Source of the DNA: a virus
Lineage: Duplodnaviria; Caudoviricetes
Length of the DNA stretch: 56,324 nucleotides
IMG/VR virus record: IMGVR_UViG_3300027969_000124
Coordinates: 1-56,324 of that record
Strand: one strand, 5' to 3'
The notes under the pieces: generated by a model
Told to the model about the DNA's origin: nothing
Seen by the model: the letters and a program-made list of their open reading frames with translations, nothing else
The model's database searches: none
In this document: one piece after another, positions 1-56,324 of the stretch
How positions within the stretch are numbered: the first letter of the stretch is position 1
Layout of the letters: each line of letters opens with the position of its first letter
Made by a program: the position numbers and the translations under genes

Positions 1-1001
1 GTATCCAAGGCTTAGATGTTCTATATCGTGCGATGTCTGGTCAGATGGGTACGGTAGATGCCAAGAAGATTCAGAAGGCATTCTTCGTCAGGGGCGCATC
101 CATCATGGCAATGTCTATGGTCTATTGGTTCTTGACCCACGACGATGATGAGTACAAGAAGCAAGAGCAAGAGACTAGGGACAACTATTGGTTGATCCCA
201 AGCATGGGCATTAAGATCCCTATCCCGTTCGAGGTTGGTGTGATCTTTAAGGTTATCCCTGAGCGTATTGCTGAGTACTTCTTTGGCAACGATACGGGCA
301 AGGACTTCGCAGACTCCATGAAGCGCAACTTCCAAAGCACCTTCATGTTTAACCTAATCCCACAGACAGTATTGCCTTTTTACGAGGCTAAGACTAATTA
401 CTCATTCTTCACTGGAAGAAACATCATTGGGGCTGGATTAGAGGGTGTAGCGCCAGAGTATCAGGTCGGGCCAAATACATCTCAGTTAGCGGCATGGCTT
501 GGTAAACAGACAGGGTATTCCCCTATGCTGATAGACCACGTCATTGGCGGGTACACAGGAACGTTTGGCTCCTACGCAGTGGATGTTGTAGATTCAATAG
601 CATTTGCCAACTCAGATGTTCAGAGACCATCTAAACGCTTCGAGCAGTTGCCAGTGTTTAAACGCTTCCTGCTGGATCCGCAGGCCAAGGGTAACGTGAC
701 TGCGTACTACGACCTCAAGAACTCCGTGGACGAGGCGGTGAGAACCTCCAACTTCCTAGAGAAGACTTCCAACTTCGAGGATATGGGCAAGTACAACGAG
801 GAAACTCTTAGGGTACTGGCATCAAAAGATTTCATCAGCGACATGGAGAAGGACATGAAGGAGTACCGTGAGTTTGCAACTTACGTAAGAACCTCCACCA
901 TGAATCCTGATGACAAGCGGGATGTATTGAGGTCTATCACCGACGCTGAGAATGCCATGACGGCTAACGTCAAGTACCTCAGAAAGTTAATGGATCAGTA
1001 G
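1..1001 (+). CDS. C-terminal fragment of large polyvalent / internal virion protein (LPD38-like domain), 5' truncated
   Basis: The frame is open from the window start (IQGLDVLYRAM...). Motifs YWLIP..IKIPIPFEVGVIFKVIPER, NYSFFTGRNI and SPMLIDHVIGGYTGTFG resemble LPD38-type C-termini. Confidence 0.7.
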   Translation, partial: IQGLDVLYRAMSGQMGTVDAKKIQKAFFVRGASIMAMSMVYWFLTHDDDEYKKQEQETRDNYWLIPSMGIKIPIPFEVGVIFKVIPERIAEYFFGNDTGKDFADSMKRNFQSTFMFNLIPQTVLPFYEAKTNYSFFTGRNIIGAGLEGVAPEYQVGPNTSQLAAWLGKQTGYSPMLIDHVIGGYTGTFGSYAVDVVDSIAFANSDVQRPSKRFEQLPVFKRFLLDPQAKGNVTAYYDLKNSVDEAVRTSNFLEKTSNFEDMGKYNEETLRVLASKDFISDMEKDMKEYREFATYVRTSTMNPDDKRDVLRSITDAENAMTANVKYLRKLMDQ

Positions 1002-1274
1002 ATGATCCCCCTCAAAGAGCCAGCCTATGGTTCTTCGGTGGGCTTCATCCCATGCGTTTAAACGCTCTTGTTTAGACATCTTGTTGCCTTGGTCTATCTC
1101 GGTGTGGCAGGTGAAGCAGAGGGCGGCAATCCTATAGTCATGCGCTTTAAGCCCTCGGCCTTTGCCATCCTTTAATTGATTGGAATGGGCGGCAACAATC
1201 GTCCCATTCTGTATCCCGCATATCTGACAGGGTGACTCCCGTACTATCTCTAGGAGTTTCTTATTCCTGTACAT
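987..1274 (-). CDS. Zn-binding HNH-like protein (DUF1364/YbcO-like)
   Basis: CQICG...AAHSN...GKGRGLKAHD..IAALCFTCH motif. Likely start is MYRNKK at 1274. Confidence 0.65.
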   Translation of the reverse strand: MYRNKKLLEIVRESPCQICGIQNGTIVAAHSNQLKDGKGRGLKAHDYRIAALCFTCHTEIDQGNKMSKQERLNAWDEAHRRTIGWLFEGDHLLIH

Positions 1275-1500
1275 GGTGACGGATGATGTAAGCCACCTCG
1301 TTGCCGTGGAAAGATATACCGTCTTCGTGTTTAAACTTCTTTTCCACGCAGGTAAGAGCGGCGTTCCATGCTGCCTGCCAAACTTCGTAAGACCAGCCAC
1401 CGTCGTCCTCAAAGGCTTTATCCCCCACAAAGTCACAGAATAACTGTTTACACACAGGTTCTATGAGCGGCAGCGTAACCAAGTCGTTTGGATCTATCAT
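1261..1500 (-). CDS. hypothetical phage protein
   Basis: ORF in a tightly coupled minus-strand operon (ATGA overlap with 1497). Confidence 0.6.
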   Translation of the reverse strand: MIDPNDLVTLPLIEPVCKQLFCDFVGDKAFEDDGGWSYEVWQAAWNAALTCVEKKFKHEDGISFHGNEVAYIIRHHVQE

Positions 1501-3464: not shown

Positions 3465-3684
3465 GCAGACTCCTTAGTAAATTTGTGTTTTTTTTCCTAA
3501 TCCAAAAACCTGTTTCGTTTAAACACATTTTTTTTGCCTCCATCTCTTTGGTCGTCATGCAGCGACGCTCCTTGGTTCCCATTTCTCCCGTGCGATGTTT
3601 ATCAAATGCACTGGTGCTGTTGAAATATTTATGGCATGTTGGGCATTGATTTCTATCCCCAGAACGTATAGTCAATCTACCCAT
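3448..3684 (-). CDS. FDxHR-type zinc-binding phage protein
   Basis: CPTCHKYFNSTSAFDKHRTG...RC. Confidence 0.65.
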   Translation of the reverse strand: MGRLTIRSGDRNQCPTCHKYFNSTSAFDKHRTGEMGTKERRCMTTKEMEAKKMCLNETGFWIRKKNTNLLRSLHDTGR

Positions 3685-3982: not shown

Positions 3983-4361
3983 TGTTTAAACTCCATTGTT
4001 CATATTCTTTTACTAGGTCGTCAAAGGCCATCTGTGCCATGCTGTTGCCGTGCAACTCCGTTCTGGAGGCAATGCCACAGCGTTTACACAGTGATGCCGC
4101 AGCATCGTCTTCAGAGTTTGCTTCTACAAAATCTTGGAACATGGGCAGTCGGCAAAGCATTCCCGCCTTGGATACCCTGTTGACGTATGGCGTGGGAGAT
4201 TCATCATCTTGGATGCGAACCAACGCACAGCCATATCTAGACCCAACGAAATCCCGCAGTAACTCCTCTGGGATCTCGTCAGGGTGGATAGAGACAGTCA
4301 GGACGTAACCCGTCCTGTCCTGTTTCAAAGCAACTTTACGGGCTTCAAACTGTAGCGCCAT
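3969..4361 (-). CDS. hypothetical phage protein
   Basis: Likely start MALQFEARK. C-terminal CGIASRTEL motif is seen in phage proteins. Confidence 0.6.
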   Translation of the reverse strand: MALQFEARKVALKQDRTGYVLTVSIHPDEIPEELLRDFVGSRYGCALVRIQDDESPTPYVNRVSKAGMLCRLPMFQDFVEANSEDDAAASLCKRCGIASRTELHGNSMAQMAFDDLVKEYEQWSLNNDPF

Positions 4362-4752: not shown

Positions 4753-5046
4753 TTAAAATGGAATATCTTCGTCAGGCAAGTCGTTACTAGGTGCGCTCTG
4801 TGTCGCATCCTTAGACTTGGGAACGAAACGGTCAACGGTGATAGAGAGATAGGTCTTACCGCTCTTGGCTTGTCGTTTCCAACCGCCTAGTTTAAAGATG
4901 TGCAAGCCATCCTCAACACGCACGTTGGTGGATAGATCCTTTAGGTTGATAGCAATCTCACCAAAATAGTCGGGTGACTTCTCGTGCATCTTGCTTGTGG
5001 TTGCGTGGAGGTTGCCTGAGTCGGCACGGGGTTTAAACTGTTCCAT
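4753..5046 (-). CDS. single-stranded DNA-binding protein (DUF736-like)
   Basis: SPDYFGEI...GWKR..SGKTYLSI core with an SSB-type acidic tail ending DEDIPF. Confidence 0.75.
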   Translation of the reverse strand: MEQFKPRADSGNLHATTSKMHEKSPDYFGEIAINLKDLSTNVRVEDGLHIFKLGGWKRQAKSGKTYLSITVDRFVPKSKDATQSAPSNDLPDEDIPF

Positions 5047-7009: not shown

Positions 7010-7392
7010 AGGAGAGAGACAACTGCGCTCCTGCAAGCCCAGTGTCTATAGTTTAAACCATTTTCCCCTGATACCCCAGATACCCCTTAGCCAACAGCAG
7101 GCTCATGGCGTGAGCTTCCCACCCCTTCCCACCCCCTGTTTAAACACATAAATGCTGATCCCGGCGGCCAGCAGCGGCCTAAAACAAGCGTTTAAACATA
7201 GAAAAGCTGATCCCGGAGCTAGGTATCGTAGCAATCGTAGCAAAAGCGGCAATAAGTACTTCCTACCTGTGCCATGTCCTGCATGTCCTAAACATAGCGT
7301 TTAAACGCATATACCGCAAACCCCCGTCTTTGGGTTCCGAAAACATAACCATAAGTCCTCGGTAGTGTTGCTAAATAAAAATTTCTAGGGTG

Positions 7393-8876: not shown

Positions 8877-9127
8877 CCCGACACGAAATAGCAGAAGAAT
8901 TCGGTGATGAACTTCTTTTCATTGACCCCGAGAACCTAGACAAGTGCATCATTGGGGTAGCGACCCGCTGTGGCATGCCACCCGTCACGGTTTATGACAG
9001 GGATCAGTTAATCCTAGCCTTCATGGAAGATGGCATGACGGACGAGGAAGCATCCGAATACATCGCGTTTAACATCGAAAGCGCGTATGTTGGCGAAGCA
9101 ACACCGATGGTGATGGTGAGGGTTTAA
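8873..9127 (+). CDS. conserved hypothetical phage protein
   Basis: IIGV...VYD...MTDEEASEYIAFNIESAYVGEATP. Confidence 0.65.
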   Translation: MTRHEIAEEFGDELLFIDPENLDKCIIGVATRCGMPPVTVYDRDQLILAFMEDGMTDEEASEYIAFNIESAYVGEATPMVMVRV

Positions 9128-9129
9128 AC

Positions 9130-10815
9130 ATGAATCTGGATCACGTCGCCTTCAACGACCACGCACGTATAGCCTGTCCCGAATGCTCGGACGATAGGAA
9201 GAAATCCAACTCTAAAGACATGACGCTGACCCGCAAGCCTGACGGTGCGGTCATCTATCACTGTCACCACTGCCTCACAAGCGGTCTTCTACAACCTAAA
9301 AACGAAACACACAGGGAGAGTAAATTGTCCGCAGTACCAAACATTGCCATAGTGAACAACAAACTGCAAGACCATCACTATGCATGGCTGTCTAAACGGG
9401 GTATTTCCCAACAGACAGCAGATAAGATGAAACTTTTCGCTGCCGATAAGTTTTTTAGCAAACTGGGCAAGACCTCCGAAGCAATCGGATTCCCTTATTA
9501 CCGAAGCGGTGCGTTGGTGGCAGTCAAGTACAGATCATTCCCTGAGAAAGATTTCACCCAAGACTCAGGCGGGGCGCACGACTTCTTTGGCATTGATCTA
9601 GTAGAGAAGGGTAAACCCCTAGTCATTGTTGAGGGTGAGATAGATGCGCTGACGGCTATGGAATGCGGGATAGAGAATGTAGTGTCAGTGCCAAGCGGTG
9701 CGCCTATCAAGGTGGCAGATGGCAAAGTGCTACCCAGCGAGGATAAGAAGTTTTCCTACGTGTGGAACGCACGAGACATTATTGAGTCAGCCCCGTATAT
9801 CGTCCTAGCCACAGACCAAGACACAGCGGGTCAGGCATTGGCAGAAGAACTAGCCAGAAGGATCGGCAAAGATAAATGTCGCATCGCCAAGTTCAGCAAG
9901 AAAGATTTAAACGAAGTCTTACTCGATGACCCAGCACGGCATAGCGCAGTCAAAGACATCATCGAAGGCGCAACCCCGTACCCCATCGCAGGTCTCTCGG
10001 ATGCGGGCATTTACTTTGACCGTTTAAACGACCTATACCAGAAAGGAACGGGGAAAGGATTTTCAACGGGGTACGCCTCGGTTGATAGCGTTTACACGGT
10101 TGCTCCTAGCCAACTCACTGTTGTTACTGGGTATCCCTCATCAGGAAAATCCAACTTCATCGATCAGGTCATGGTCAATCTCGCACGTGGAGCAGACTGG
10201 AAGTTCGCAGTGTGTTCGTTTGAGAATCAGCCTGAGATCCACATCTCCCGCCTGATGGAGATTTACACCAAGAAAAGATTCTTTGATGGCAAGGATCGCA
10301 TGACGGAGGAAGAAAAAGAACATGCGTTTAAATGGGTACAGGATCATTTCTTGTTCATCGATACCAACGGAGAAGAACCGTCAACACTGGAGTCCATCTT
10401 GGATCGGGCGAGGGTAGCGGTTAAACGCATGGGGGTGCGGGGTATGGTCATCGATCCATACAACTACATAGAGTTAGACAAGACCAACTCGACAGAGACT
10501 GAGGCGATAAGTTCCATGCTGACCAAGGTGCAGAAGTTCGTCAAAGCCCATGACGTGCATTGTTGGTTCATCGCTCACCCATCCAAGATCAACCGCTCAG
10601 GGGTGGAGCAACCTCGACCCGACGGTATGTCAATCAGTGGATCGATGGCATGGTGGGCTAAGACCGACTGTGGTATCACCGTCCACAGGGCAGAGCAATG
10701 CGTTGAAATCGCAGTGTGGAAGTGTAGATATCGGTGGGTGGGTACGCAAGGTGAAACGACCCTTCTCTATAACAAGACAGCGGGTACGTACTCAGAGAAT
10801 CTAGATCAGTTCTAG
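9130..10815 (+). CDS. T7 gp4/Twinkle-type primase-helicase
   Basis: Zn finger CPEC..CHHC, TOPRIM EGEIDA and ATDQD, SF4 Walker A TGYPSSGKS, VIDPY, IAHP, SISGS. Confidence 0.92.
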   Translation: MNLDHVAFNDHARIACPECSDDRKKSNSKDMTLTRKPDGAVIYHCHHCLTSGLLQPKNETHRESKLSAVPNIAIVNNKLQDHHYAWLSKRGISQQTADKMKLFAADKFFSKLGKTSEAIGFPYYRSGALVAVKYRSFPEKDFTQDSGGAHDFFGIDLVEKGKPLVIVEGEIDALTAMECGIENVVSVPSGAPIKVADGKVLPSEDKKFSYVWNARDIIESAPYIVLATDQDTAGQALAEELARRIGKDKCRIAKFSKKDLNEVLLDDPARHSAVKDIIEGATPYPIAGLSDAGIYFDRLNDLYQKGTGKGFSTGYASVDSVYTVAPSQLTVVTGYPSSGKSNFIDQVMVNLARGADWKFAVCSFENQPEIHISRLMEIYTKKRFFDGKDRMTEEEKEHAFKWVQDHFLFIDTNGEEPSTLESILDRARVAVKRMGVRGMVIDPYNYIELDKTNSTETEAISSMLTKVQKFVKAHDVHCWFIAHPSKINRSGVEQPRPDGMSISGSMAWWAKTDCGITVHRAEQCVEIAVWKCRYRWVGTQGETTLLYNKTAGTYSENLDQF

Positions 10816-10905: not shown

Positions 10906-11041
10906 GGTATCAGTCACATCACCCACGCTAGATACCCGACTACATAAATAATCTTACCTGCACATAAGAATTTTTCTGCGGCAGCAGGAAGATATGCGTT
11001 TAAACGTACCAGCAGCCAGCCGCAGCGGGATAAATGTAGGT

Positions 11042-11242
11042 TTAAACATTTAATCTTGCCCTGAAAACTGCACGAGGAAGAGAAGCAAAACGACCACACA
11101 GGCGAGGGACTCGACCCTTGGTCATCTTATAAACATTCCATATGCCATCGTAAGCAATGTATTTTTCACCCACGCTAATAAACCGCTCGTCATTCTGTAG
11201 GTTGACAAGGTTGTCGTGTTTGTAAGCGGTTTGTAGGAACAT
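11042..11242 (-). CDS. hypothetical early protein
   Basis: 3' part of the track ORF, starting at MFLQTAYK. Confidence 0.5.
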   Translation of the reverse strand: MFLQTAYKHDNLVNLQNDERFISVGEKYIAYDGIWNVYKMTKGRVPRLCGRFASLPRAVFRARLNV

Positions 11243-11614: not shown

Positions 11615-11955
11615 GCCGACTCCCATTCCGCCAGCACCGCCAGCAAACTGTTTAAACGGTCAGTGAAGTCTTCGTCGTCTATCATGTCAGGTGCGTTCTC
11701 CTGTGCCAACCTGATAGCACTCTTCAACGCAGAAACCAAATCGTTGGTATACATCTCAAAATGAGAACGTGTGTTATGAATAAATTCAGAAACTTGTTCG
11801 AGCGTGTGATTCTCCACAACTTCCCAAACGCTGATATCAGGGTGAGACCACTGCTCTTCGGGATCGGTTAATATCGCCATGACTTCCTCGTAAGACTTAT
11901 CGTCATCAAAGTGTGTAAGCCATTCAGCCAAAGCAAATCGTTCAGATAGTTTCAT
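11611..11955 (-). CDS. acidic early protein
   Basis: D/E-rich 114 aa ORF, coupled, with RBS. Confidence 0.6.
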   Translation of the reverse strand: MKLSERFALAEWLTHFDDDKSYEEVMAILTDPEEQWSHPDISVWEVVENHTLEQVSEFIHNTRSHFEMYTNDLVSALKSAIRLAQENAPDMIDDEDFTDRLNSLLAVLAEWESA

Positions 11956-12205: not shown

Positions 12206-12622
12206 TTACTCCTTTTGTGCGTTTAAACGATTAACTGCGTCTTCTAAATACTGGATAGCGTCACCTTGACGTTTCCATGTTTCACCGTCATTTTCATCAC
12301 CCTCAACATAAGCGTAGTAGTGGTTTGCTCCCACCTCAACCATCCCCTCGCTCTTTATCGTTGGAAAATAGAAGTGGTAGTGTTGACACCACAGTAAATC
12401 CATTTCAGATTCGGGATGCTCCAATGCCCACTCAACTTTCGTCAGCACCGCCATACCCTTCGGTAAACGGTCAACAATGCTTTGTGCAAACTCCTTGTCG
12501 GGTTCAACATCGGGCGGTGTGTTTCTAAATTGCTCAAACAAAACTTGCGCCTTGTCTTCGCCATGCTCTTCGATCAAGTCATCTAAATCTACATAGGGTG
12601 TATTCAGTATCGATATGTTCAT
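12206..12622 (-). CDS. acidic early protein
   Basis: D/E-rich 138 aa ORF. Confidence 0.6.
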   Translation of the reverse strand: MNISILNTPYVDLDDLIEEHGEDKAQVLFEQFRNTPPDVEPDKEFAQSIVDRLPKGMAVLTKVEWALEHPESEMDLLWCQHYHFYFPTIKSEGMVEVGANHYYAYVEGDENDGETWKRQGDAIQYLEDAVNRLNAQKE

Positions 12623-13247: not shown

Positions 13248-13268
13248 TTGTTTTCTCCTGTTTAAACG

Positions 13269-13561: not shown

Positions 13562-13837
13562 TTATTCACGTTGCATCCTTTCCATCAAAAACTTAACGCT
13601 CTTGCGTGCGTGACTGTCATAGCCACGCTTGGCGATATCCTCGATGACCAACAGCATGTCAGGCGCAAACGTGATTAGCCGTGCGTTAGCCCTCTGAGTA
13701 CCTACTGGCATCGCTTTGCTAGAGCAGTCAGCAACAATCATCGACCCCCCTGTGGGGTCTTGCGTCCACACGGTATTGCCCTTTGACCCAACGACGGAGG
13801 GGACGAACCAATGACCCCCTGCTATATGTTTAAACAT
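13562..13837 (-). CDS. phage protein with ANARL..AP motif
   Basis: RANARLITFAPDML; start MFKHIAGG with GGAGG RBS. Confidence 0.6.
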   Translation of the reverse strand: MFKHIAGGHWFVPSVVGSKGNTVWTQDPTGGSMIVADCSSKAMPVGTQRANARLITFAPDMLLVIEDIAKRGYDSHARKSVKFLMERMQRE

Positions 13838-14251: not shown

Positions 14252-15920
14252 GGTCTTCTACCTTGCGAACGATCACCGAATTTTTGTAGATGTCTGTCAC
14301 GTCAGACATGATGCCGACACCTATCGTTGTGATGCCCAGTGACTCACCCGCTTTGACCTGATCACGCACGGCAGAGGGGTTGCCACGTCCATCGGTGATC
14401 ACAAAGCAGATCTTGCGTTGTGCATCTGTACCGTGCAACATCTCATGGGCATAACGCACTGCAAAAAAGTCATTAGTTCCACCGCCTGAGATAACGTTGG
14501 GCATGACAGCCAATGCCTTCTTGGCGGGTAAGGCGAACGGTTTCAGCACTGCTGTCTCGCATCCAAATGTCAGCACTGCCGTCTGCACTTGTGCAGAGTT
14601 AAGCGCATCGACCAGTGATGCACAGGCATTGAGACCCGCTTGGATGGGGGATAACTTGCGCTTGAAGTTGAACATCGAACCCGATACATCCAACACGATC
14701 ACGACAGCGGAGTCGATACCATCGACATCTAATCTACGTTTAAACAGGCGATCATTGCCCGATGGAATTGTGTGCAAGGTACGCACGTTGACCGACCCCG
14801 ACTTGCGTCCGACTTGGTGATCGCTTGTGCCTGTGTTATCGAACAAGCGACGAACCTCGAACCGTAACTTGGCAGAGACGTTCACGTCAGCGTTCAGTTC
14901 ATAGTGACGTTGATTGCGGTAGTGCGACTCAGTGAGACCGCTCGACTTGGAGTACGTACCGTCAGCACCCGCACCATCGGGTGCTTGGTTAGTTGGCTCG
15001 ACCTCACGTGCGTAGGGGAGATTACCCTCGTTGTCAGTTGGGTTTTGAGCGTCACCCACTGGAGCGTCCGAACCATCGGATGCACCCTCACCCTCACCCT
15101 CGTTCTGATCGGGGCTTGTAGACCCCTTCTCGCCCTTCCCTGACCCCTCGCCCTGACCCTCGCAAGGTTGACCTTCTGTAGGTTGACCCTCGCCCTTGCC
15201 CTTGCCCTGACCTTTGCCCTGACCGTCACCTTGTGGCTTAGGGTTGGGGTTGGGTTTAATGCTCTTCAATTGATCGGCAACCCACAGGGCGATAGCCAAG
15301 GTGTCTTCACTGGTTTTAGCGGTAGCAAGGCGGTCACGTGCCACGTCAAATATTGGCTTGAGACCGTTAGCCAATGGCACTTTGCGAGTCGCATGTTTAC
15401 GTGCATAGACAGCCAACACAAAGGGGTACTGCTCAGGGCTAGACCAATCGACAGGTTGTGTGAAAGATTCAGCGACCATACCATCGACCAGTGAGGAGAG
15501 GAGACCCTCAGCATTGCCGACTAACTTCTCGTCGATACAACGGTGTTCGATCATTGCGTCTTCCAGTGCGTTGTGCAGTGAGCGGACATAGTGAACCTCA
15601 GTGCGTCCGACTTGGAAGTCGGTGTACTTACGGTGCAACAACTCATGCAAGATGAACCCAACATAACGCTCGAATACTGGGCGGGTGATCACTGCATTGT
15701 CGGCAACGTTATGCAAGACGATGTCACCGTGATTGTTGATCTTGGCAGTGGGTGTCCATGCGTCCCATGCCACGGTCACTGGGGCAAGGGCTAACTCCTT
15801 GCAGATTTTGTGGGTAGCCTGTTCGATGGCTTTGCGAAACTCGACCCCGTTTAAACGGCTACGTGAAAACACTACGCATTTGTCACCACCAACGATGACG
15901 TGTTTTGTTTGTTGTTGCAT
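14211..15920 (-). CDS. VWA-domain protein with N-terminal HExxH domain (CobT-like architecture)
   Basis: ILHELLH, NALED, G/E/Q low-complexity linker, MIDAS DVSGS, ITDG. Confidence 0.85.
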   Translation of the reverse strand: MQQQTKHVIVGGDKCVVFSRSRLNGVEFRKAIEQATHKICKELALAPVTVAWDAWTPTAKINNHGDIVLHNVADNAVITRPVFERYVGFILHELLHRKYTDFQVGRTEVHYVRSLHNALEDAMIEHRCIDEKLVGNAEGLLSSLVDGMVAESFTQPVDWSSPEQYPFVLAVYARKHATRKVPLANGLKPIFDVARDRLATAKTSEDTLAIALWVADQLKSIKPNPNPKPQGDGQGKGQGKGKGEGQPTEGQPCEGQGEGSGKGEKGSTSPDQNEGEGEGASDGSDAPVGDAQNPTDNEGNLPYAREVEPTNQAPDGAGADGTYSKSSGLTESHYRNQRHYELNADVNVSAKLRFEVRRLFDNTGTSDHQVGRKSGSVNVRTLHTIPSGNDRLFKRRLDVDGIDSAVVIVLDVSGSMFNFKRKLSPIQAGLNACASLVDALNSAQVQTAVLTFGCETAVLKPFALPAKKALAVMPNVISGGGTNDFFAVRYAHEMLHGTDAQRKICFVITDGRGNPSAVRDQVKAGESLGITTIGVGIMSDVTDIYKNSVIVRKVEDLGAIAFNKIKLVA

Positions 15921-17423: not shown

Positions 17424-17434
17424 TACTCCTATGT

Positions 17435-18031
17435 TTAAACGGTGAAGAGATCGCCATCGACTGGGCATGTAGGCAGTCCATAGGATGCCCATTTTGAGGT
17501 CAGTCGCACGGTGTAGCCACATGATGGGCAGTAGGCTTTCAGCATGCGAGTGCCTTGTTTTTTCTTACGCTGTCCCACTGTCAGTGAGCCATGTGGGTAT
17601 GCACCCAGTGATTCGATAATTGCACCGTAGGTCTGAGCAAACCCACTAGCACCACGTGTAGCACCCCACGGTTCTCTACGTGTGGGGTCTATTGGTTCGA
17701 GCATCATTGCCGATGCGATTTTTTGGAAGTTGATACCGTGGTTAAAACCCCCCTTGGCGGTATGGCACAACTCATGCACCACTACCTCGAATACCTCGCT
17801 TGGACTAGCCAACTTGGGGTGTATGAAGATCTCATGGTGACCGTCCGCAGATGCGGTATCGATCCAACACTCGCCAATGGCATTGGAGCGGAGTGCGTTA
17901 GAGGGAAGACCGCACGTCAGGCGAACCCTCTCAGGTAATTTAGAACCCGCAACCTCAAAGGCGGGACGTAACTCTTGGAATGCTTGGGTGAGCCATTGCT
18001 CACGTGTGGCATGGATGGTAGGCAGTGTCAT
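17435..18031 (-). CDS. SprT-like zinc metalloprotease with C-terminal Zn ribbon
   Basis: TREQWL, IGECW, EIFIHP, HELCH...H..F, CPSCGYTVR...PTCP. Confidence 0.75.
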   Translation of the reverse strand: MTLPTIHATREQWLTQAFQELRPAFEVAGSKLPERVRLTCGLPSNALRSNAIGECWIDTASADGHHEIFIHPKLASPSEVFEVVVHELCHTAKGGFNHGINFQKIASAMMLEPIDPTRREPWGATRGASGFAQTYGAIIESLGAYPHGSLTVGQRKKKQGTRMLKAYCPSCGYTVRLTSKWASYGLPTCPVDGDLFTV

Positions 18032-19685: not shown

Positions 19686-19900
19686 ACGCTAGGGGTGCTT
19701 GTGTGTTTAAACGGCATCAGAGTTCACCCACCGTCCCGCCACACCCCGCTGTGCATGAGCGACCACCCGCCTGCGCTTACGCTCTAATTCACACATCCCC
19801 TCACTTGTCCCTCGCCATTAGAACGTTCTCACCAGAAACACCCCCCCCTATGCTTTTCAATTTGGCTACCCCGGGGGTATATATATTTTCTAAAAAGGTC

Positions 19901-48209: not shown

Positions 48210-49309
48210 TCCACCTAACGCACTACCGCACGGCATATTCAACTACGGTGGAGTTGATGGAGGGTGTCTTCCCCCAGAAAGTTCACTGGTTTCCAGAGAC
48301 ATATGCGCGTGTAAACAGTGGGATGTTCTACGTTCCCCACCGTGTTGCTGACAAAGTACTTGACCCAGTCCTAGCCAAAGAACTAAGGGAAAACCCTGTG
48401 GGTAAGACTGCATTTATTCTTGCTGGTGGAAACTCTCACTTTGCAGGAATTAACCCCCGATCCAAGGATCCTACAAGGCTGTCTTATGAATATAAGTTCC
48501 TACCATTTACTCTTACTCAAGTGTATGCAGGAAGAACAGCCCAAGCCTTGGGTGCTACGGATCATGTTGTTACCGATGCCACAGCCTGCGCCTCCAGTCT
48601 TAAAGCGCTGATGGATGTACAGACCCTAATTAACTTTTATGGGTTTAAACGTGTAATTGTCCTGACGGTAGAGGATGCTGTTACCAACTCAGTCCTTGAG
48701 TTCTTTGGAGAAGCCAAGGCATCTCTTACCAAGAAAGAGGAAGATTTAGGTGTTAAGCCATCTGCCTTTGATGAGACAAACTACGGGTTCTTTGTGGGTC
48801 AAGGCGCGGCTCTGGCGGTGTTTGAGTCCAGCGACGTATCAGAGAACCCTATAGCCATTCTCAAGGGAGCCTATACAGCCAGCGAAGATCACTCGAACGC
48901 TATCGGCCAGCGAGAGGATGGGCAAGGGTTCATTCGTGCGATTGAGGGGGTTCTAGACATAGCCCGTACCCCCGCCGAGCATATAAGCATTGTCAAAACG
49001 CACGGTACTGGAACAAAGTCCAACAACGTGGCTGAAAAAGCGGCTTTGGCGTACACGTTAGACCAATATGTCGCCACCTCGTACAAGCAAAAGATAGGTC
49101 ATACGATGGGTGCCAGCGGTCTATTGGAAACTCTATTATTAATAGATAATATCCTCTCTGATGAGATAGTTCCCTGTATCGCTAACAGGACTGCCTATGA
49201 CGAAGTATTTCTGTCGGAAGATGTCAAAGTGCCACAGGGCGATATATTGACTCTTGCGGCGGGTATGGGCAATGTGTACTCGGCGGCTGTGCTGTCGTTG
49301 GAGATATAA
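48206..49309 (+). CDS. beta-ketoacyl-ACP synthase (FabB/FabF-like ketosynthase)
   Basis: TACASS (Cys), KTHGTGT (His), KIGHTMGASG (His), GFFVGQGAA. Confidence 0.85.
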   Translation: MIHLTHYRTAYSTTVELMEGVFPQKVHWFPETYARVNSGMFYVPHRVADKVLDPVLAKELRENPVGKTAFILAGGNSHFAGINPRSKDPTRLSYEYKFLPFTLTQVYAGRTAQALGATDHVVTDATACASSLKALMDVQTLINFYGFKRVIVLTVEDAVTNSVLEFFGEAKASLTKKEEDLGVKPSAFDETNYGFFVGQGAALAVFESSDVSENPIAILKGAYTASEDHSNAIGQREDGQGFIRAIEGVLDIARTPAEHISIVKTHGTGTKSNNVAEKAALAYTLDQYVATSYKQKIGHTMGASGLLETLLLIDNILSDEIVPCIANRTAYDEVFLSEDVKVPQGDILTLAAGMGNVYSAAVLSLEI

Positions 49310-49748: not shown

Positions 49749-51065
49749 ATGAGCGCAGTATCAGATTCATTAGCCGATTTCGATGACTCAGTGCGCGAAG
49801 AAGTTTCTTCTGTTGGAGAAACTATTCAAGACACGGGTCAGGCGGTTATTGATACCGCTGTTACACCTGTAGTAAAGGCCGTTCAAAACACCTACGATGC
49901 ATTTGAAAAAGACCCTGTAGGAACGACTTTAAAACTAGCGGCTGCTGCGTCTGGAGACCCGACGCTCATCATGGCGACAAATACAGCCGTCAATGTGGCT
50001 CAAGGTCAAGACATTAATGATGCGTTAGAAAATGCGGCAAAACAAACCGCCGTGACTTATGCCTCTATTGAAGCGGGTAAATACGCGGCAAGTGAATTTG
50101 GAACTCCAACCGCAGAGCCTATTGTTGACATAGAGGCTGGCCCAACACCGACTATTGAAACAGCAGCCCCAGCGCCATCCGCGCCTGTAACCAACACAAT
50201 TATTAAATCAGGAACTCAAGGCGCTACTAGCGCGGCTTTGCAGGGCAAAGATCCAATTGAAGGCGCTACGTCAGGCATAGTATCTTCTGGCGTTAGCTCA
50301 GGCATTAACGCAGGAACAAGCGCAGCCTCAAAAGAAGTATCTGATGCGGATTTTGAAAAATGGTCTCAAGAACAAGCAGAAAAATCTTACGAGAACGCAC
50401 CTAGCCCAACAGAGTTGGAGGTGATGGCGGCTGACAATACAGTTGCTTTGCCGCCTGCAACAACCACGACAGAGACTGGGCCGGGTTATTACAACGAGGC
50501 TACGGGTCAATTTGTGCCAAGCGAAACTGGCACGGCTCCTTTAGACAATACCTCCGGAACTAATCTGGATAGTATGAAGGACTACACCTATGACACTGCG
50601 ACCAATACTTGGACTTCCCCTGATGGCGAGGTAATCAGTTTAAACGACTTATCTAACACACAGACTCCGTTAGACACTGAGTCAGTTCTACCGCCTCCTT
50701 CTGTTGCAGATCCAGAGGCATACAACCCATTGAATGTTAAGCCTGCGCTGGACTATGCGGCAAAGGCTGCGTTACAAAAGGCTGCGGCAGATAAAGCAGC
50801 AGCGGCAAGAGCGGCGGCAGCTAAGGCGGCTCAAGCAAATGCGGGGCAGACAACGCAGTCAAATAACCTTCTGGGATTGCTTGCGTTGCTAGATACCAAA
50901 GCGCCACAAGCCCCTGTTCAAAATCAATCAAACGACATAAAATACTTCTATGACATTATGGGCAATGAGATATTGCCGCCCGCCCCCGAAAAGACCGCAA
51001 AACCTGTGTTTGATTTTGCCGAAGGCGGGACGATAGAAGACCTAATCCGAATGCTGAGGAGTTAA
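49749..51065 (+). CDS. internal virion / ejection protein
   Basis: A/T/P-rich low-complexity protein ending FAEGG; position after the tail genes. Confidence 0.55.
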   Translation: MSAVSDSLADFDDSVREEVSSVGETIQDTGQAVIDTAVTPVVKAVQNTYDAFEKDPVGTTLKLAAAASGDPTLIMATNTAVNVAQGQDINDALENAAKQTAVTYASIEAGKYAASEFGTPTAEPIVDIEAGPTPTIETAAPAPSAPVTNTIIKSGTQGATSAALQGKDPIEGATSGIVSSGVSSGINAGTSAASKEVSDADFEKWSQEQAEKSYENAPSPTELEVMAADNTVALPPATTTTETGPGYYNEATGQFVPSETGTAPLDNTSGTNLDSMKDYTYDTATNTWTSPDGEVISLNDLSNTQTPLDTESVLPPPSVADPEAYNPLNVKPALDYAAKAALQKAAADKAAAARAAAAKAAQANAGQTTQSNNLLGLLALLDTKAPQAPVQNQSNDIKYFYDIMGNEILPPAPEKTAKPVFDFAEGGTIEDLIRMLRS

Positions 51066-51066
51066 T

Positions 51067-52839
51067 ATGGCTTTAATTGTTTCTGGGTACGATTCAAACG
51101 GAGACCCCGTATATACGGATGATGGAAATGGGCCAGAATTTTCAACCTCTGGCGGAAATGACAGTCAATATGTAAACCAAGATTTGACTGAGGGTAACAG
51201 TGGGTATGTAGATACGACAGAAGAAATCCCAGAATGGATGAATTTAGAAAATTCTGGAAATGTAGCCAATATGGATGGTTGGAAGGCTTCCGGCGGAGTG
51301 TGGACGGATCCTGCTGGCAAAACTTACGATATGTCGTACTTAAATGCCCAGCCCGGACTAATGAGTTCCATCTCTAGTTTTTTCAAGAAACCTGACGGTA
51401 GTTACGACTTTGGAAAGATGGCTGCTCTTGGAACTGGTCTGGCAGCAATGACGGGTTTAAACAAAGCAGGAAAAACACCCGTAGGTTTTCAAGGTAGTAT
51501 CCCTAAATACACCGCATTACAGCAACAAATTCCTAGACAGGCCGATCCTAGCCGTGTCCCCGGATCTGCTGGGCAACGCTATTTCACCGATGTGCAGTAT
51601 GCCGCTCCAGCGGATGTTGCCGCTAAACAAGGCATTATGAGTCAACAAGCACAAACCCTAGCCCAACCTATGGCAACTGGAGGTTTAACCGCTCTTGCCT
51701 CTGGTAAATACTTACGTGGTCATACCGATGGCATGGCTGATGAAATCCCAGCCCAGATTGGTAAAGACCAACCAGCCAAACTTAGCCACGGGGAATTCGT
51801 TATCCCTGCCGATGTTGTCTCTCACCTTGGAAACGGTAACTCGGATGCAGGCGCTAATGTTTTATACGCCATGATGGCTAAGGTACGCAAAGCACGTACA
51901 GGCACAGATAAGCAGGGTAAGAAGATTAACCCTGAGAAGTTCACCCCCGGAGGCGGTATCAAAGGTTTTGCTGTTGGTGGCTCTACAGGAGTTACGGGTG
52001 TTGGAAGTGCGGCATCTTCAGGCGTTGCTGGCACTGAATCTAACCTCTCTAACTGGGCAGGCCCATACGTAACGGATATGCTTGGCAAAGGTCAGGCTTT
52101 GTCTGAGACCCCATACCAAGCCTATACAGGCCCACTGACCGCTGGCGCATCTGAACTTCAAACTCAGTCGTTTGGCAATGCCGCCAATTTAAACGTGCCA
52201 ACTGGAATGGGTGGGTACACCCCCGGAACGTTTGATACAACCCAAGCAAACAAGTACATGAATCCGTATCTGTCTGCCGCCCTAGACCCTGTTATGGAAG
52301 AACAGCGCAGGCAAGCAGAAATAGGCAGAGTCAATGAAGCCGCACGCTATACCAAGGCAGGCGCTTACGGCGGCGGTCGTCAAGCAATTGCAGACACTGA
52401 GAACACACGTAACCTTGGAACTCTCCAGAACAAGACATTGACCGAAGGCTATAAGACAGCCTATGACAAGGCAATGGATCAATTTAATAGAGAACAAGGA
52501 CTTGGACTACAAGCCCAAGACCTCACCAACAAGTACGGACTTGCCGCTATTGAAGAGCAAGCCAAATTGGGCGGAACTCAAAGAGACATCACATCCCAAG
52601 GCATTGCCGCAGACAAAGCGCAGTTTGAGGAAGAGCGTGCTGATCCATTTAAGAAGGTTCAGTTCCAGCAATCATTACTACAAGGCTTGCCCACAGCGGC
52701 ACAGTCTTACACACCAGCACAGACTAGCGCTCTACAAGACCTTATGTCAACTGGCGCAATGTCTACGGCTCTGTATAAGCAACTCCAAGACCTTGGTGTT
52801 ATTGCTAAAGACCCCACTACAACCCCTCCGAAAGCGTAA
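51067..52839 (+). CDS. internal virion / DNA ejection protein
   Basis: G..DG..D.IPA..LS.GEFV.PADVVS.LGNG..AGA domain; YMNPY, GAYGG.RQ, Q-rich helices. Confidence 0.6.
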   Translation: MALIVSGYDSNGDPVYTDDGNGPEFSTSGGNDSQYVNQDLTEGNSGYVDTTEEIPEWMNLENSGNVANMDGWKASGGVWTDPAGKTYDMSYLNAQPGLMSSISSFFKKPDGSYDFGKMAALGTGLAAMTGLNKAGKTPVGFQGSIPKYTALQQQIPRQADPSRVPGSAGQRYFTDVQYAAPADVAAKQGIMSQQAQTLAQPMATGGLTALASGKYLRGHTDGMADEIPAQIGKDQPAKLSHGEFVIPADVVSHLGNGNSDAGANVLYAMMAKVRKARTGTDKQGKKINPEKFTPGGGIKGFAVGGSTGVTGVGSAASSGVAGTESNLSNWAGPYVTDMLGKGQALSETPYQAYTGPLTAGASELQTQSFGNAANLNVPTGMGGYTPGTFDTTQANKYMNPYLSAALDPVMEEQRRQAEIGRVNEAARYTKAGAYGGGRQAIADTENTRNLGTLQNKTLTEGYKTAYDKAMDQFNREQGLGLQAQDLTNKYGLAAIEEQAKLGGTQRDITSQGIAADKAQFEEERADPFKKVQFQQSLLQGLPTAAQSYTPAQTSALQDLMSTGAMSTALYKQLQDLGVIAKDPTTTPPKA

Positions 52840-54497: not shown

Positions 54498-54511
54498 CTT
54501 GGTAGTAGTAC

Positions 54512-56324
54512 ATGCCAACCTATGAAATCAGTGCGCCTGACGGTAATAAATACCAAATTGAAGGGCCGGAGGGGGCTACCCAAGATCAAATCATTAGAGA
54601 GGTTGTAAGGCAGAATCCTTTTGCTGGGAAGACTACGGAAGAGTTAAAGAAAGTTCCGTCCGCCCCGTCAACTTTTAGAGATATAAATGAAACTGCCGCC
54701 ATGTCTTTGGCTGGTGGTCTTAAAAGCCTGACTGATTTATTTGGCGCAGACAACGCCGTCTCTAGAAACCTTGCCGAGAAACAAGAAACTGCTCTCAAGC
54801 AGATGACTCCTGCGCGACTAAAAGAGTTGCAAATTGAAGAGGAGTTGGCTAACCGAGCGGAAGGCAAAACTGGCGAGGAAATTTCTACAGCGGCAAGATC
54901 GTTTTTTAGATCGCCATTACAGGGATTGACTAGCGGTGCCTTTAGTTCTGTTCCAATCATTGCCGCAACCGCGCTTGCGCCTGAAGTTACCCTGCCTGCG
55001 GGGATAGCACGCCTACTAGGAACGGGTGTTGCTGGGAAAGTTGGACAGAAGGTTGCTGGCGCATCTCCGGGAATGGCGGTTGGTACAGCAATGGGAGTTG
55101 GCTCCCAAAAGGGTCAAGACTACGAAGCCGTCAAAGATGCCATGTTGAAGCGTGGCGCTACGGAAGAAGAGGCTGAAGCCGCCGCACAGAAAGCCGCTGA
55201 ATACTCTAGAGAGAATGCCGCTAGACAAGCCGCATCAGGGGTTGCTGGTGGCGCAGAAGCCGTTCTGGGCGTTGAGAGTGTATTGGGTCGCATGGGAAGA
55301 GCTGGAAAAGCGCCAGCCACCGCTCCAACAAGGATAGGAACGGCAGTAAAGTCTACTGTGGGCGAGGCTGTCCCAGAAGCAATACAAAGCGTTACAGGCG
55401 GAGTAGGCACCAACATTGCCCTGCAACAGGCTGGTTTTGAGCGTGACTTGATGGCGGGTGTTGCTGGTCAAGCCACTACAGAGGCTTTAACTGGAGCCTT
55501 ACTTGGCACGGCAGTGTCTCCTCTTCAATATAGAAGTCTGCAAAATGATTTCTTGCGTCAACAAAACGAAGAAGCCAACAAGAAACAAGAAGAGTTCCAA
55601 AAGCAACGGGAAGAGTTTGTACAAAAATACCAGCAGCAGCAGGAAGAAACCAAGAAAAATCTAGGTTTAAACATGCTTGCGCTGCCCGCTCCGGCGACTA
55701 CAGCAGAAGAGAAATACAGAAACCCCGCAGCCACCATCACCAGACAGGAGTTGGGAGAGCAAGAAGTAAACGGGAAAAAAATAAAGTCTGAAGTGCTTCA
55801 GTACTTGGATGACTACCGCAAGGCTAATAACTTGCCTGCCCTCAAGGCGTATTCCATCGAAGACATCAAAGATGCGATGCCCGGTTTAAACCCAGAAGGC
55901 GAGAAAGGAATTCTTGATTCCATCCTTGCTGGTAAGTATGGGTATAAACCCGTAGATGAGACTACCGGAAATGAGATCAAGTACACATCCGATGACATCA
56001 TGGCATTGGCTGAGGAAGAGAAGAACATTGCCACAGGCACGCAGGGCTTTAAAGACTTCCTCACTAGCGTCACAGGAACTGACAACGTTGGCGAAATGTC
56101 TCAACCTCAACTGCATGCCGCATACTCTGCGCTACAGAAGTTTGAGCCATCCGAAGAAACAAGAATCCTCCCTGAAGGTACAGCCGCTACTCGTTTCAGC
56201 CAGAAGCAATATGACAATGCTCTCAAGGTTGTTAACGTTGAATTTGCCAGTGTTGACAATAAGCCTTTAGACCCCAAAGTCATAGCCAAAGAGATTAAAG
56301 AAGCGACAGGCTTAGAGAACGACA
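54512..56324 (+). CDS. N-terminal part of very large internal virion/polyvalent protein (3' truncated, not in ORF track)
   Basis: MPTYEISAPDGNKYQIEGPEGAT...; same frame still open at the window end (...EATGLEND); G/A-rich hydrophobic segments. Confidence 0.7.
   Translation, partial: MPTYEISAPDGNKYQIEGPEGATQDQIIREVVRQNPFAGKTTEELKKVPSAPSTFRDINETAAMSLAGGLKSLTDLFGADNAVSRNLAEKQETALKQMTPARLKELQIEEELANRAEGKTGEEISTAARSFFRSPLQGLTSGAFSSVPIIAATALAPEVTLPAGIARLLGTGVAGKVGQKVAGASPGMAVGTAMGVGSQKGQDYEAVKDAMLKRGATEEEAEAAAQKAAEYSRENAARQAASGVAGGAEAVLGVESVLGRMGRAGKAPATAPTRIGTAVKSTVGEAVPEAIQSVTGGVGTNIALQQAGFERDLMAGVAGQATTEALTGALLGTAVSPLQYRSLQNDFLRQQNEEANKKQEEFQKQREEFVQKYQQQQEETKKNLGLNMLALPAPATTAEEKYRNPAATITRQELGEQEVNGKKIKSEVLQYLDDYRKANNLPALKAYSIEDIKDAMPGLNPEGEKGILDSILAGKYGYKPVDETTGNEIKYTSDDIMALAEEEKNIATGTQGFKDFLTSVTGTDNVGEMSQPQLHAAYSALQKFEPSEETRILPEGTAATRFSQKQYDNALKVVNVEFASVDNKPLDPKVIAKEIKEATGLEND

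Follow-up and report, generated by a model that had tools for sequence, protein, structure and literature searches.

The IMG/VR record IMGVR_UViG_3300027969_000124 is a single contig of 56,324 bp that represents the genome of a tailed phage, and the whole of it (hereafter the window) was analysed. The element under study is an 8-bp palindrome, GTTTAAAC, that is iterated over much of this genome, and the gene under study encodes a SprT-like protein whose C-terminal domain accompanies the same word in otherwise unrelated phages. Since the final open reading frame (ORF) leaves the end of the record and resumes at its start, the assembly is regarded as circularly permuted. The structural genes encode the small and large terminase, portal, major capsid protein, SU10-type adaptor proteins, a glycine-rich fibre of 1,435 residues and a lysozyme, and replication and recombination involve a T7-gp4-like primase-helicase and a Sak/PD-(D/E)XK/RusA module, as identified with Pfam and PHROGs. 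The window also encodes a MoxR-AAA/VWA gene pair and numerous small ORFs to which no function is assigned. Neither an integrase nor a CI-like repressor was detected with Pfam and PHROGs, and Rfam and tRNA scans revealed no RNA genes. A megablast search of INPHARED returned no close relative; when terminase proteins are compared, DSL-LC04 and the Pelagibacter phages HTVC027P and HTVC023P come nearest among cultured phages (51-58% identity). The sequence is present, always as contigs, in 24 sequencing runs, most of which are labelled as freshwater metagenomes and none of which is listed as RNA.

Enrichment, selection and dialects of the palindrome

A preliminary description of the window had listed about 40 copies of GTTTAAAC, with 1-2 expected by chance. 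The 40 listed starts were all exact and no further copies exist in the window, making this palindrome its most frequent 8-mer of any kind, while the runner-up among 8-bp palindromes has only 4 copies. Dinucleotide-preserving shuffling, repeated 100 times, gave a mean of 1.10 copies and at most 6, hence never 40, and Markov models trained on the window expect 1.2 copies at orders 1 and 2, then 2.3 at order 3 and 5.7 at order 4. The enrichment that was to be checked against such models thus holds at orders 1-4, but at orders 5 and 6, where 14.3 and 34.7 copies are expected, the test is circular because the 6- and 7-mers involved are mostly pieces of the 40 copies; for this reason a synonymous-codon test and cross-genome conservation were used instead. 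Palindromes of 6 bp are avoided in the window, with 22 of the 64 absent, including CCATGG, CTGCAG, GCTAGC, GGTACC, TCATGA and TGGCCA, of which an order-4 model expects 6-14, and this avoidance suggests pressure from many restriction systems. The enrichment of GTTTAAAC opposes the genome's general avoidance of palindromes.

The sites prefer a pyrimidine at position -1 (27/40) and a purine at position +8 (34/40). This flank preference is what stands of an earlier claim that many copies extend to palindromes of 10-14 bp, as perfect 10-bp palindromes occur at 13 of the 40 sites, near the 25% expected by chance. The copies are unevenly distributed, 35 lying in the first 32 kb (coefficient of variation, CV, of their spacing 0.87) and 5 in the remaining 24 kb (P = 4e-5). 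The absence of copies between 31.9 and 48.6 kb, already remarked upon, corresponds to a gap of 16,776 bp (31,874 to 48,643) that holds tail, fibre and lysis genes and has P = 0.0002 in 10,000 random placements. The reported preference for gene junctions was likewise borne out, given that 15 sites are not wholly within a coding sequence (CDS) and 25 are inside CDSs, in a genome that is 6.8% non-coding (P = 2e-8). Ten sites begin between -35 and +10 nt from a start codon, where 7.3% would be expected, and at three (9122, 17433 and 19680) the motif supplies the TAA stop codon of a gene. All 40 sites are listed in Table 1.

The synonymous test examined contexts able to encode GTTTAAAC, namely x-Phe-Lys-(codon beginning with C) and (Cys/Arg/Ser/Gly)-Leu-Asn. 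Of 28 such contexts in the window, 18 are written as the motif, whereas its own codon usage would predict 1.3; the corresponding figures for relatives are 31/44, 28/44, 25/40 and 24/36. Control words of the same composition never occupy more than 6 contexts in any one frame and genome, the usual number being 0-3, and the largest counts belong to words one letter off the motif. Within the 32-48.6-kb gap none of 4 encodable contexts is used, versus 18 of 22 elsewhere (Fisher P = 0.0047). Sites are found in both usable reading frames as well as in non-coding DNA. Conservation in relatives, which had been named as a check, was evaluated through blastn alignments of the 150 nt on either side of each site with 80 related sequences (75 loci and 5 genomes), which showed the motif to be retained in 133 of 274 site-relative pairs (48.5%), versus 10,806 of 58,791 other 8-mers (18.4%; Fisher P = 1e-29). 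These comparisons of sequences indicate that GTTTAAAC is under selection at the DNA level, with purifying selection on old sites and ongoing gain of new ones. The copy at 26748, in the major capsid gene, is to judge from the aligned sequences a recent gain through a synonymous TTG>TTA change.

The same word is the top 8-bp palindrome in 68 of 80 IMG/VR loci surrounding related terminase genes (64-99% identity), 3 of them as ties, and 43, 40 and 37 copies are present in three complete relatives and 35 in another that is 80% complete, over a G+C range of 44 to 53%. Among its near-cognates, only those altered at position 1 (A or C) and by T>G at position 3, the latter being GTGTAAAC, are enriched; transition-type variants are not, and double variants are rare (in relative G004, GTGT+AAAC occurs 16 times, GTTT+ACAC 10 times and GTGTACAC once). 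As far as sequence comparison can tell, this pattern is one of specific recognition rather than decay. The family, with a full consensus of Y-GT[T/G]TAAAC-R, is divided into dialects, among them ATTTAAAC, GTGTAAAC and TGTAAAC: loci L070 and L074 hold 19 and 7 copies of ATTTAAAC, 5 and 2 of ATTTAAAT and none of GTTTAAAC, while G003 (57% G+C) has one GTTTAAAC and 49 copies of GTAAAC, of which about 12 are expected, under the same flank rule. GTGTAAAC is the dialect of high-G+C members.

The asymmetric forms have no consistent orientation. The ratio of co-oriented to anti-oriented copies with respect to transcription is 12:7 in L070, 29:20 in G003 and 8:18 in G004, and strand counts in nearly unidirectional genomes of actinophages (see below) are 11:7, 7:14, 23:16 and 15:18, from which it follows that the element acts on double-stranded DNA and not as an RNA signal or promoter hexamer. 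A promoter or RNA element was also rejected on other grounds, as no conserved element was found at a fixed distance within 45 nt on either side of 195 and 186 oriented sites. Sigma-70 promoter scans gave 14 hits versus 26.3 in shuffles and 13 versus 23.3, with no link to the motif, but they missed an obvious TTGACA...TATAAT pair at 7393-7423 and are therefore uninformative.

A role at a replication origin, as iterons, is possible but could not account for 40 dispersed copies. In relatives, 3-7 sites lie directly past the primase-helicase gene, one array having a DnaA box, and a mis-binned relative fragment, L131 (G006:C52), holds at 1200-1800 an origin-like stretch in which 7 copies of GTTTAAAC within 417 bp right past this gene are joined by an exact DnaA box and two other direct-repeat families. 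The window has five DnaA-box-like 9-mers within 110 bp at 18903-19010, two being exact TTATCCACA and three having one mismatch, in the divergent region between a leftward small-gene operon and the small terminase gene; this cluster is probably a replication origin or DnaA-controlled promoter region, and contains no exact motif, with one near-cognate, TGTAAACG, at 18880. The E. coli Chi sequence was also tried, GCTGGTGG being present 14 times on the plus strand, and was discarded as a coding artefact because 10 of the 14 sit in the Ala-Gly-Gly repeats of the glycine-rich fibre gene (37573-41880).

Table 1. Positions in the window of the SprT-like gene, its C-terminal module and the 40 copies of GTTTAAAC; "kept" refers to aligned relatives
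Position	Strand	Feature or location	Remarks
17435..18031	-	SprT-like ORF	198 aa; HExxH (VVHELCHT) and C-terminal zinc-ribbon-like domain
17438..17617	-	SprT-like C-terminal module	~57-60 residues, KQGTRMLK..CPSCGY.VRLT..G.P.CP
656..663	.	inside LPD38 polyvalent-protein ORF	V-F-K-R context
1056..1063	.	inside HNH-like ORF 987-1436(-)	GCGTTTAAACGC; kept in 2/2
1329..1336	.	inside CDS	K-F-K-H context
3517..3524	.	partly or wholly outside CDS	upstream of ORF 3108-3464(-)
3984..3991	.	right before start of RHH ORF 3677-3982(-)	overlaps ribosome-binding site
5031..5038	.	codons 3-5 of ORF 4753-5046(-)	
7051..7058	.	intergenic region 7010-7800	first of its four sites
7138..7145	.	intergenic region 7010-7800	head of 27-nt direct repeat GTTTAAACAYAKAAAWGCTGATCCCGG
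7190..7197	.	intergenic region 7010-7800	in second copy of 27-nt repeat GTTTAAACAYAKAAAWGCTGATCCCGG
7299..7306	.	intergenic	GCGTTTAAACGC
9122..9129	.	stop codon of ORF 8873-9127	abuts primase-helicase ATG
10022..10029	.	inside primase-helicase gene	R-L-N; kept in 15/18
10998..11005	.	convergent intergenic region past primase-helicase	relatives hold 3-7 sites there
11040..11047	.	convergent intergenic region past primase-helicase	42 nt from site 10998
11650..11657	.	small early ORF	R-L-N
12221..12228	.	3' end of ORF 12206-12622(-)	25 nt ahead of next start codon
13007..13014	.	immediately upstream of AAGGAG ribosome-binding site	ORF 12815-12994(-)
13260..13267	.	immediately upstream of AGGAG ribosome-binding site	ORF 13017-13247(-)
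13828..13835	.	overlaps start codon of ORF 13562-13837(-)	ATG TTT AAA C
14738..14745	.	inside VWA gene	kept in 9/9
15849..15856	.	inside VWA gene	R-L-N
16595..16602	.	inside AAA/MoxR gene	GCGTTTAAACGC; kept in 4/8, plus 1 GTGTAAAC and 1 GTTTAAAT
17433..17440	.	stop codon of SprT-like ORF	ahead of AAA gene ribosome-binding site
19370..19377	.	inside small terminase gene	kept in 5/9
19680..19687	.	stop codon of small terminase gene	
19705..19712	.	intergenic	25 nt past site 19680; kept in 4/4
19921..19928	.	upstream of LexA-like wHTH and large terminase genes	overlaps -10-like hexamer of TTGCGA-17 nt-TAAACT; kept in 30/33; ATTTAAAC in same place in L070 and L074
21242..21249	.	inside large terminase gene	kept in 28/78; rest GTTTAAAG or ATTTAAAC
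25240..25247	.	inside ORF 24687-25625	S-L-N; kept in 3/14
26748..26755	.	inside major capsid gene	in 0/28; most read GTTTGAAC or GCTTGAAC
27665..27672	.	past capsid gene	spacer of promoter-like TTGCCT-17 nt-TATAAA; kept in 13/16
28298..28305	.	between hairpin and AAGGAG ribosome-binding site	ORF 28319-28825
29603..29610	.	inside DUF6321 ORF 29548-29865	kept in 3/13
30253..30260	.	inside ORF 30125-30592	
31867..31874	.	inside adaptor-like ORF 31662-32597	final site ahead of 16.8-kb gap
48643..48650	.	inside ketoacyl-synthase-like ORF	
50638..50645	.	inside ORF 49749-51065	
51455..51462	.	inside ORF 51067-52839	
55665..55672	.	inside polyvalent-protein ORF 54512-56323	
55884..55891	.	inside polyvalent-protein ORF 54512-56323	

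Co-occurrence with a SprT-like domain

A scan of IMG/VR for three sites within about 100 nt, of which some 0.2 would be expected on a rough estimate, yielded at least 126 stretches, and among 80 such loci that were fetched, 55 share no protein with the window within 2 kb on either side. The motif is abundant in a group of genomes of about 40 kb (the 40-kb group) that are unrelated to the window and its relatives (the window clade), two of them with direct terminal repeats, and that differ from this clade in portal and capsid and encode a sigma factor of their own as well as an amidoligase/amidotransferase/deoxynucleoside monophosphate (dNMP) kinase cluster. Complete genomes of this group hold 49, 37 and 37 copies and fragments 35 in 32 kb and 29 in 12 kb, crowded into the small-gene region, and the Y(-1)/R(+8) flank preference is identical in the two groups. 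Low-G+C fragments contain 7-25 copies in 4.7-21 kb versus 0-1 of the control. In L263 (G013), a member of the 40-kb group, adjoining genes for an amidoligase, a class-II glutamine amidotransferase and a dNMP kinase are located at 9045-10985 and 13369-13806; such gene sets are associated with hypermodified DNA bases. The two groups also have tail-fibre-associated domains in common, w_36247 of the window (36247-37563) being 60% identical to a domain of G012 (34650-35216) and w_42877 (42877-43224) 49% identical to one of G011 (28976-29350), and this exchange of modules means that they probably share hosts.

All 488 called proteins of the window clade were compared by phmmer with 218 of the 40-kb group. 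The shared set consists of a distant terminase and primase, the exchanged adaptor and tail-fibre domains, and the SprT-like ORF, whose C-terminal stretch of about 57 residues (KQxTRxxK..C..Y.vR.t..G.P.CP) is the sole part of a protein present in all 11 genomes and the only non-structural module common to these two uncultured motif-rich groups. A tblastn search with the 60-residue domain matched 119 INPHARED records, mostly phages of Arthrobacter, Microbacterium and Streptomyces in which the gene is annotated as "SprT-like protease," together with phages of Escherichia, Pseudomonas, Burkholderia, Achromobacter, Dinoroseobacter and others. Of the window proteins, tblastn matched the SprT-like ORF alone in the Microbacterium phage IAmGroot and the Arthrobacter phage Crewmate, and in the E. 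coli phage ep3 only this ORF and the lysozyme are matched.

The motif family is present in 8 of 8 domain-positive cultured phages tested. GTGTAAAC recurs 18 times in IAmGroot (70% G+C; ~0.24 expected), 21 times in Crewmate (~0.6 expected), 39 times in Streptomyces phage UNTPL and 33 times in Microbacterium phage Honk (control 0 in both), the copy nearest to the SprT-like start codon being 52, 37, 73 and 18 nt away, respectively; GTTTAAAC occurs 17 times in Dinoroseobacter phage R5C (control 0), 7 times in Burkholderia phage Mica (control 1) and 4 times each in Pseudomonas phage Persinger (control 0) and ep3 (~0.9 expected), with nearest copies at 381, 15, 18 and 19 nt. In the five records for which a reversed-pattern control was counted, it occurred 0-1 times per strand. 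A copy is located 15-73 nt upstream of the SprT-like gene in seven of these eight phages and 37-72 nt upstream in 5/5 genomes of the 40-kb group. The copy in ep3 is flanked by a TATAAT hexamer and the ribosome-binding site, and that in R5C precedes by 76 nt the co-directional gene ahead of the SprT-like gene. By comparison, 7/7 domain-negative phages (HTVC027P, DSL-LC04, HTVC023P, MinM2, CRP-901, phiA008 and Cinna), which include the three nearest cultured relatives of the window and one Microbacterium phage, have 0-2 copies; the domain search recovered 5/5 known positives.

Within actinophages, part of the copies belong to repeated promoter cassettes that consist in IAmGroot of TTGCGC, a 17-nt spacer holding GTGTAAAC, and TACACT, and in Crewmate of TTGCGT, 18 nt and TAGACT directly followed by GTTTACAC. 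Copies outside the cassettes occur on both strands, spread over structural and replication genes. The IAmGroot genome contains 20 TAAAC pentamers in all, 18 of them within the motif, and the 39 copies of UNTPL have a more even spacing than random placement would give, with a mean gap of ~1.37 kb and a CV of ~0.53 versus ~1 (by hand arithmetic). The fact that the motif is found in unrelated phages whenever the SprT-like zinc-ribbon protein is encoded makes this protein its most likely reader. A search of the literature, supplements aside, identified no description of a phage GTTTAAAC, GTGTAAAC or GTGTAAACG motif or of its link to SprT-like proteins.

The SprT-like ORF matches phrog_6361 (function not assigned) with an E value of 2.8e-40, has generic zinc-ribbon matches, and is 38% identical over ~200 aa to the "SprT-like protease" of IAmGroot and Crewmate. 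Its AlphaFold model has a mean predicted local distance difference test score (pLDDT) of 81.9, and the best Foldseek match is SPRTN (6mdw; E 7e-3, probability 0.77, template modelling score 0.29-0.31), another near fold being the minigluzincin 4jiu; no PDB sequence matched its profile below E 0.17. In the window clade the HExxH motif reads HEL[CS]H in 5/6 genomes and LRELAHS in G003. Within the 40-kb group, the N-terminal domain has no HExxH in G012 and G013 and is absent from G011, G014 and G015, and the C-terminal module stands alone, as an ORF of ~57-63 residues, in three genomes of this group and also in G017, a low-G+C fragment in which the open frame has 63 residues. The gene is the first of a three-gene run at 14211-18031, followed by those of the MoxR-type AAA ATPase and the VWA protein, that is present in all five relatives compared, which suggests a functional link.

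Candidate readers of the motif

The interpretation that is favoured here, with moderate confidence, is that GTTTAAAC (Y-GT[T/G]TAAAC-R) constitutes a dispersed docking site in double-stranded DNA, the candidate reader of which is the phage's own SprT-like protein. Its C-terminal zinc-ribbon-like domain of ~57 residues would recognise the site; the promoter-adjacent copy, which in most lineages is at the promoter of the SprT-like gene itself, would provide (auto)regulation, and the ~40 other copies, placed where non-coding DNA, stop codons or synonymous codons permit, would keep the phage chromosome loaded with the protein, roughly one site being available per kilobase. In the window phage, the loaded protein would bear an intact HExxH metalloprotease domain of the Spartan/SprT type. 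Docking may exert transcriptional control, or it may tether a protease to phage DNA, where it could act on host proteins bound there. That some lineages retain the DNA-binding module alone indicates that binding, and not proteolysis, would be the conserved core, while the resemblance of the N-terminal domain to DNA-dependent proteases makes proteolysis of proteins bound to phage DNA an attractive output.

A more specific version of this proposal, possible though doubtful, is that the motif serves as an address code for a DNA-dependent protease that is guided by sequence and cleaves host proteins that bind to or translocate on phage DNA. Its targets would be xenogeneic silencers, type I restriction motors or other defence complexes, and the site at its own promoter would set the dose, lineages with the 57-residue reader alone having been reduced to a plain DNA-binding regulator. 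Such a protease, if real, would represent a new class of phage counter-defence, with an 8-bp code conserved from actinophages to proteobacterial phages.

A number of observations weigh against the SprT-like protein as reader. Direct binding by its C-terminal domain is suggested by association only, and the domain sequence is almost constant across dialects, as in L070, which has ATTTAAAC and no GTTTAAAC; no protein-site co-variation could be demonstrated, the dialect tracking G+C content and phylogeny. The eight positives were picked from tblastn lists and the seven negatives from terminase relatives, and are small, non-random sets. Possession of the protein does not require iteration, since ep3 and Persinger have only 4 copies each. 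The window clade has no copy within 400 nt upstream of the SprT-like gene in 6 genomes, so that the argument for autoregulation rests on other lineages, and the site-free block at 32-48.6 kb is unexplained by a simple "coat the genome" model. As to the protein itself, its match to the Pfam SprT-like family PF10263 (E 1.5e-4, 22.0 bits) is below the cutoff of 25.6, its model has no Foldseek match at E 0.001, and the C-terminal domain, modelled at moderate confidence (pLDDT 49-77), has weak matches only to ribosomal zinc-ribbon proteins. A proline before the KQ motif was tried as the determinant of dialect; it accompanies the GTGTAAAC-rich, high-G+C members, and was rejected given that G004 breaks the rule and that G+C content and phylogeny are confounding.

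A different sequence-specific protein could read the sites, such as the ribbon-helix-helix (RHH) protein (3677-3982), the LexA-like winged helix-turn-helix (wHTH) protein (19981-20166), a sigma-like helix-turn-helix (HTH) protein or several analogues, and the SprT-like gene would then merely be one conserved target of a stoperator-like global repressor system. This is unlikely, if deserving of attention, as sites overlap promoter-like elements at 19921 and 27665 and in the actinophage cassettes, site 3984 overlaps the ribosome-binding site of the RHH gene, and the size of the motif would suit RHH dimers, which read boxes of ~8 bp (MetJ, omega). Sigma-like proteins are moreover encoded near the SprT-like gene in the 40-kb group and in AZ/EH-type actinophages, and the missing upstream site of the window clade also fits. 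The general notion of a genome-wide binding code, advanced in the preliminary description, is sustained by synonymous selection, positional conservation and dialects, but the readers it named are not: the five relatives compared, four of them motif-rich, encode no homologue of the wHTH protein at 7806; neither the nearly invariant recognition helix of the LexA-like protein nor the beta-strand of the RHH protein co-varies with the dialect; and the large virion proteins are not conserved among the relatives compared. The RHH protein, both wHTH proteins and other small conserved window ORFs have no detectable homologue in the 40-kb group, IAmGroot, Crewmate or ep3, and independent recruitment of the same 8-10-bp site in phages of Actinobacteria and Proteobacteria is unlikely. 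The protein that does travel with the motif, the SprT-like ORF, was not among the candidates named earlier.

The LexA-like gene is adjoined by a palindrome of its own, the 10-bp CGAACGTTCG, within a promoter-like element at 19896-19920 just upstream of it, and GAACGTTC is found twice in several close relatives; this element is likely to be a separate operator for the LexA-like protein. Another candidate reader was a polyvalent protein of ~936 residues whose ORF spans the record ends (54512-56323 and 3-1001) and whose C-terminal part has an LPD38 "large polyvalent protein" domain. Its N-terminal 600 residues have relatives in 4/5 compared genomes, all four GTTTAAAC-rich, and none in G003, and the lead was dropped because G003 proved to carry a dialect of the motif.

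Selection of the motif by a host factor, such as a nucleoid protein, a Chi-type recombination hotspot or a self-marker for a host nuclease, in phage groups that share hosts, appears quite improbable. It would agree with the exchange of tail-fibre and receptor-binding modules between the two uncultured groups, which suggests common hosts, and with a density of ~1 per kb like that of DNA uptake sequences, Chi or HIP1. The motif family nevertheless spans phages of Streptomyces, Microbacterium, Arthrobacter, Dinoroseobacter, Burkholderia, Pseudomonas and E. coli, among which no shared factor is obvious, and is missing from the seven phages without the SprT-like domain, a Microbacterium phage and the closest cultured relatives included. 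The HIP1-like host origin that had been entertained also finds no support in five metagenome-assembled genomes (MAGs) in which relatives were binned, as the 16-48 copies that these contain in 2.1-4.7 Mb do not exceed the reversed control, although binning is weak evidence of a host, and a search of the genome contigs found those with relatives to be short and probably mis-binned. Furthermore, the strand polarity of Chi is impossible for a palindrome, and there is no orientation bias.

A restriction-modification-like or nicking target, involving a phage methyltransferase, the HNH protein (987-1436) or a PmeI-type host enzyme, with copies kept for epigenetic marking, recombination initiation or packaging, has little probability. 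GTTTAAAC, the PmeI site, is an 8-bp palindrome of the kind typical of type II sites, the phage encodes an HNH endonuclease as well as its recombination module, sites cluster round the small terminase gene (19370-19921), and L070-type relatives (19 ATTTAAAC, 5 ATTTAAAT, 0 GTTTAAAC) look as though the exact word were avoided. Against this, no methyltransferase was detected in the window with Pfam and PHROGs, the motif-rich G002 lacks the HNH gene, iteration of asymmetric dialects such as GTGTAAAC is as strong as that of the palindrome, and targets of this type are normally avoided, as the 22 absent 6-bp palindromes indicate for this genome, whereas GTTTAAAC is enriched. Lastly, a neutral or mutational by-product (biased repair or gene conversion, an origin formerly suggested for HIP1) or an RNA-level signal (an RNase site, a promoter element or UUUAAAC, the classic -1 frameshift heptamer, which the motif contains) is very improbable. 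Ten sites do lie near ribosome-binding sites or start codons, yet orientation and conservation largely refute this reading: positional conservation is far above background, only particular near-cognates and not transition-type decay products are enriched, asymmetric dialects are unbiased with respect to transcription, no conserved element lies at a fixed distance, and both usable frames and non-coding DNA are occupied.

Two further features of the window may be mentioned. A beta-ketoacyl-synthase-like ORF (48206-49309; Pfam ketoacyl-synt N- and C-terminal domains), unusual in a phage, sits amid virion and internal protein genes and has no homologue among the five relatives compared. The near-consensus promoter at about 7393-7423 is followed by ~370 nt of hairpin-rich non-coding DNA up to ORF 7806, and this stretch (7393-7800) may be a phage small RNA or leader.

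Known systems and significance

The stoperators of Cluster A mycobacteriophages, which are the sites of the L5 gp71 repressor, are asymmetric, 13-14 bp in length and oriented with transcription, and are read by the HTH immunity repressor of temperate phages of one cluster. Like them, the GTTTAAAC family is a short site repeated 20-40 times over a phage genome of ~50 kb, at promoters and in and between genes, with a putative phage-encoded reader and dialects in sub-lineages. Unlike them, it is a palindrome of 8-10 bp, or an asymmetric variant of one, and is not biased in orientation; it occurs in temperate phages and also in phages with no detected integrase, across host phyla, together with a SprT-like zinc-ribbon protein. 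Pfam and PHROGs searches detected no CI-like repressor in the window, and its HTH and RHH candidates do not travel with the motif.

SPRTN recognises DNA structure (single-stranded DNA, junctions) and not sequence, and is not known to have genomic address sites. Proteins of the SPRTN/Spartan-Wss1 type, as far as the consulted text describes them, combine a HExxH metalloprotease domain with a small zinc-binding, DNA-binding module, and the SPRTN protease is DNA-dependent (PMC5127644). The phage SprT-like ORF appears from its sequence to have the same arrangement, with a HExxH domain followed by a small zinc-ribbon-like module; unlike SPRTN, it has 198 aa and no ubiquitin or PCNA motifs, and some phages have no protease motif or the 57-aa C-terminal module alone. 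ArdC of plasmid R388, according to the part of its description consulted, joins DNA-binding and metalloprotease domains and allows incoming DNA to overcome host type I restriction (PMC7213743). By description alone, it resembles the window protein as a mobile-element protein with this combination of domains, and differs in that it binds single-stranded DNA with no known sequence motif and has a different N-terminal domain.

The "SprT-like protease" of Cluster AZ/EH/EB actinobacteriophages belongs to the same family as the window ORF. The main text of a preprint on Cluster AZ presents it as a conserved, putative DNA-binding protease near the integrase and mentions repeats; in that text, supplements aside, the string "TAAAC" has 0 occurrences, and it contains neither the link of the protein to iterated GTGTAAAC or GTTTAAAC nor its presence outside actinophages (bioRxiv 10.1101/2025.05.26.655371). 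If the favoured reading is correct, a conserved DNA word and a small protein form a pair in phages of very different bacteria, from soil actinobacteria and marine alphaproteobacteria to Burkholderia, Pseudomonas, E. coli and uncultured freshwater hosts, and a function, or at least a DNA target, could be attributed to a widespread uncharacterised phage protein. It would also explain a class of iterated words in phage genomes, and such words have consequences for annotation, codon optimisation and synthetic recoding, as the sites would be lost on synonymous recoding. The pair is present in cultured, tractable phages, namely E. coli ep3 and HeidiAbel_Bas97 and the SEA-PHAGES Arthrobacter and Microbacterium phages.

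The nearest conceptual precedent is HIP1 (GCGATCGC) of cyanobacterial chromosomes, described in the text consulted as an 8-bp palindrome with a 15- to 300-fold excess and about one copy per gene, conserved within and between ORFs, hence selected, whose reader is not identified there (PMC5861425). GTTTAAAC is similarly a selected, iterated 8-bp palindrome, more than 15-fold over-represented (40 copies versus 1.1-5.7) and conserved at 48.5% versus 18.4%. Unlike HIP1, a feature of host chromosomes, it belongs to phage genomes and is not enriched in the five MAGs, and a candidate reader emerges from co-occurrence; should that candidate prove right, GTTTAAAC would be a rare HIP1-like "mystery palindrome" with a testable reader.

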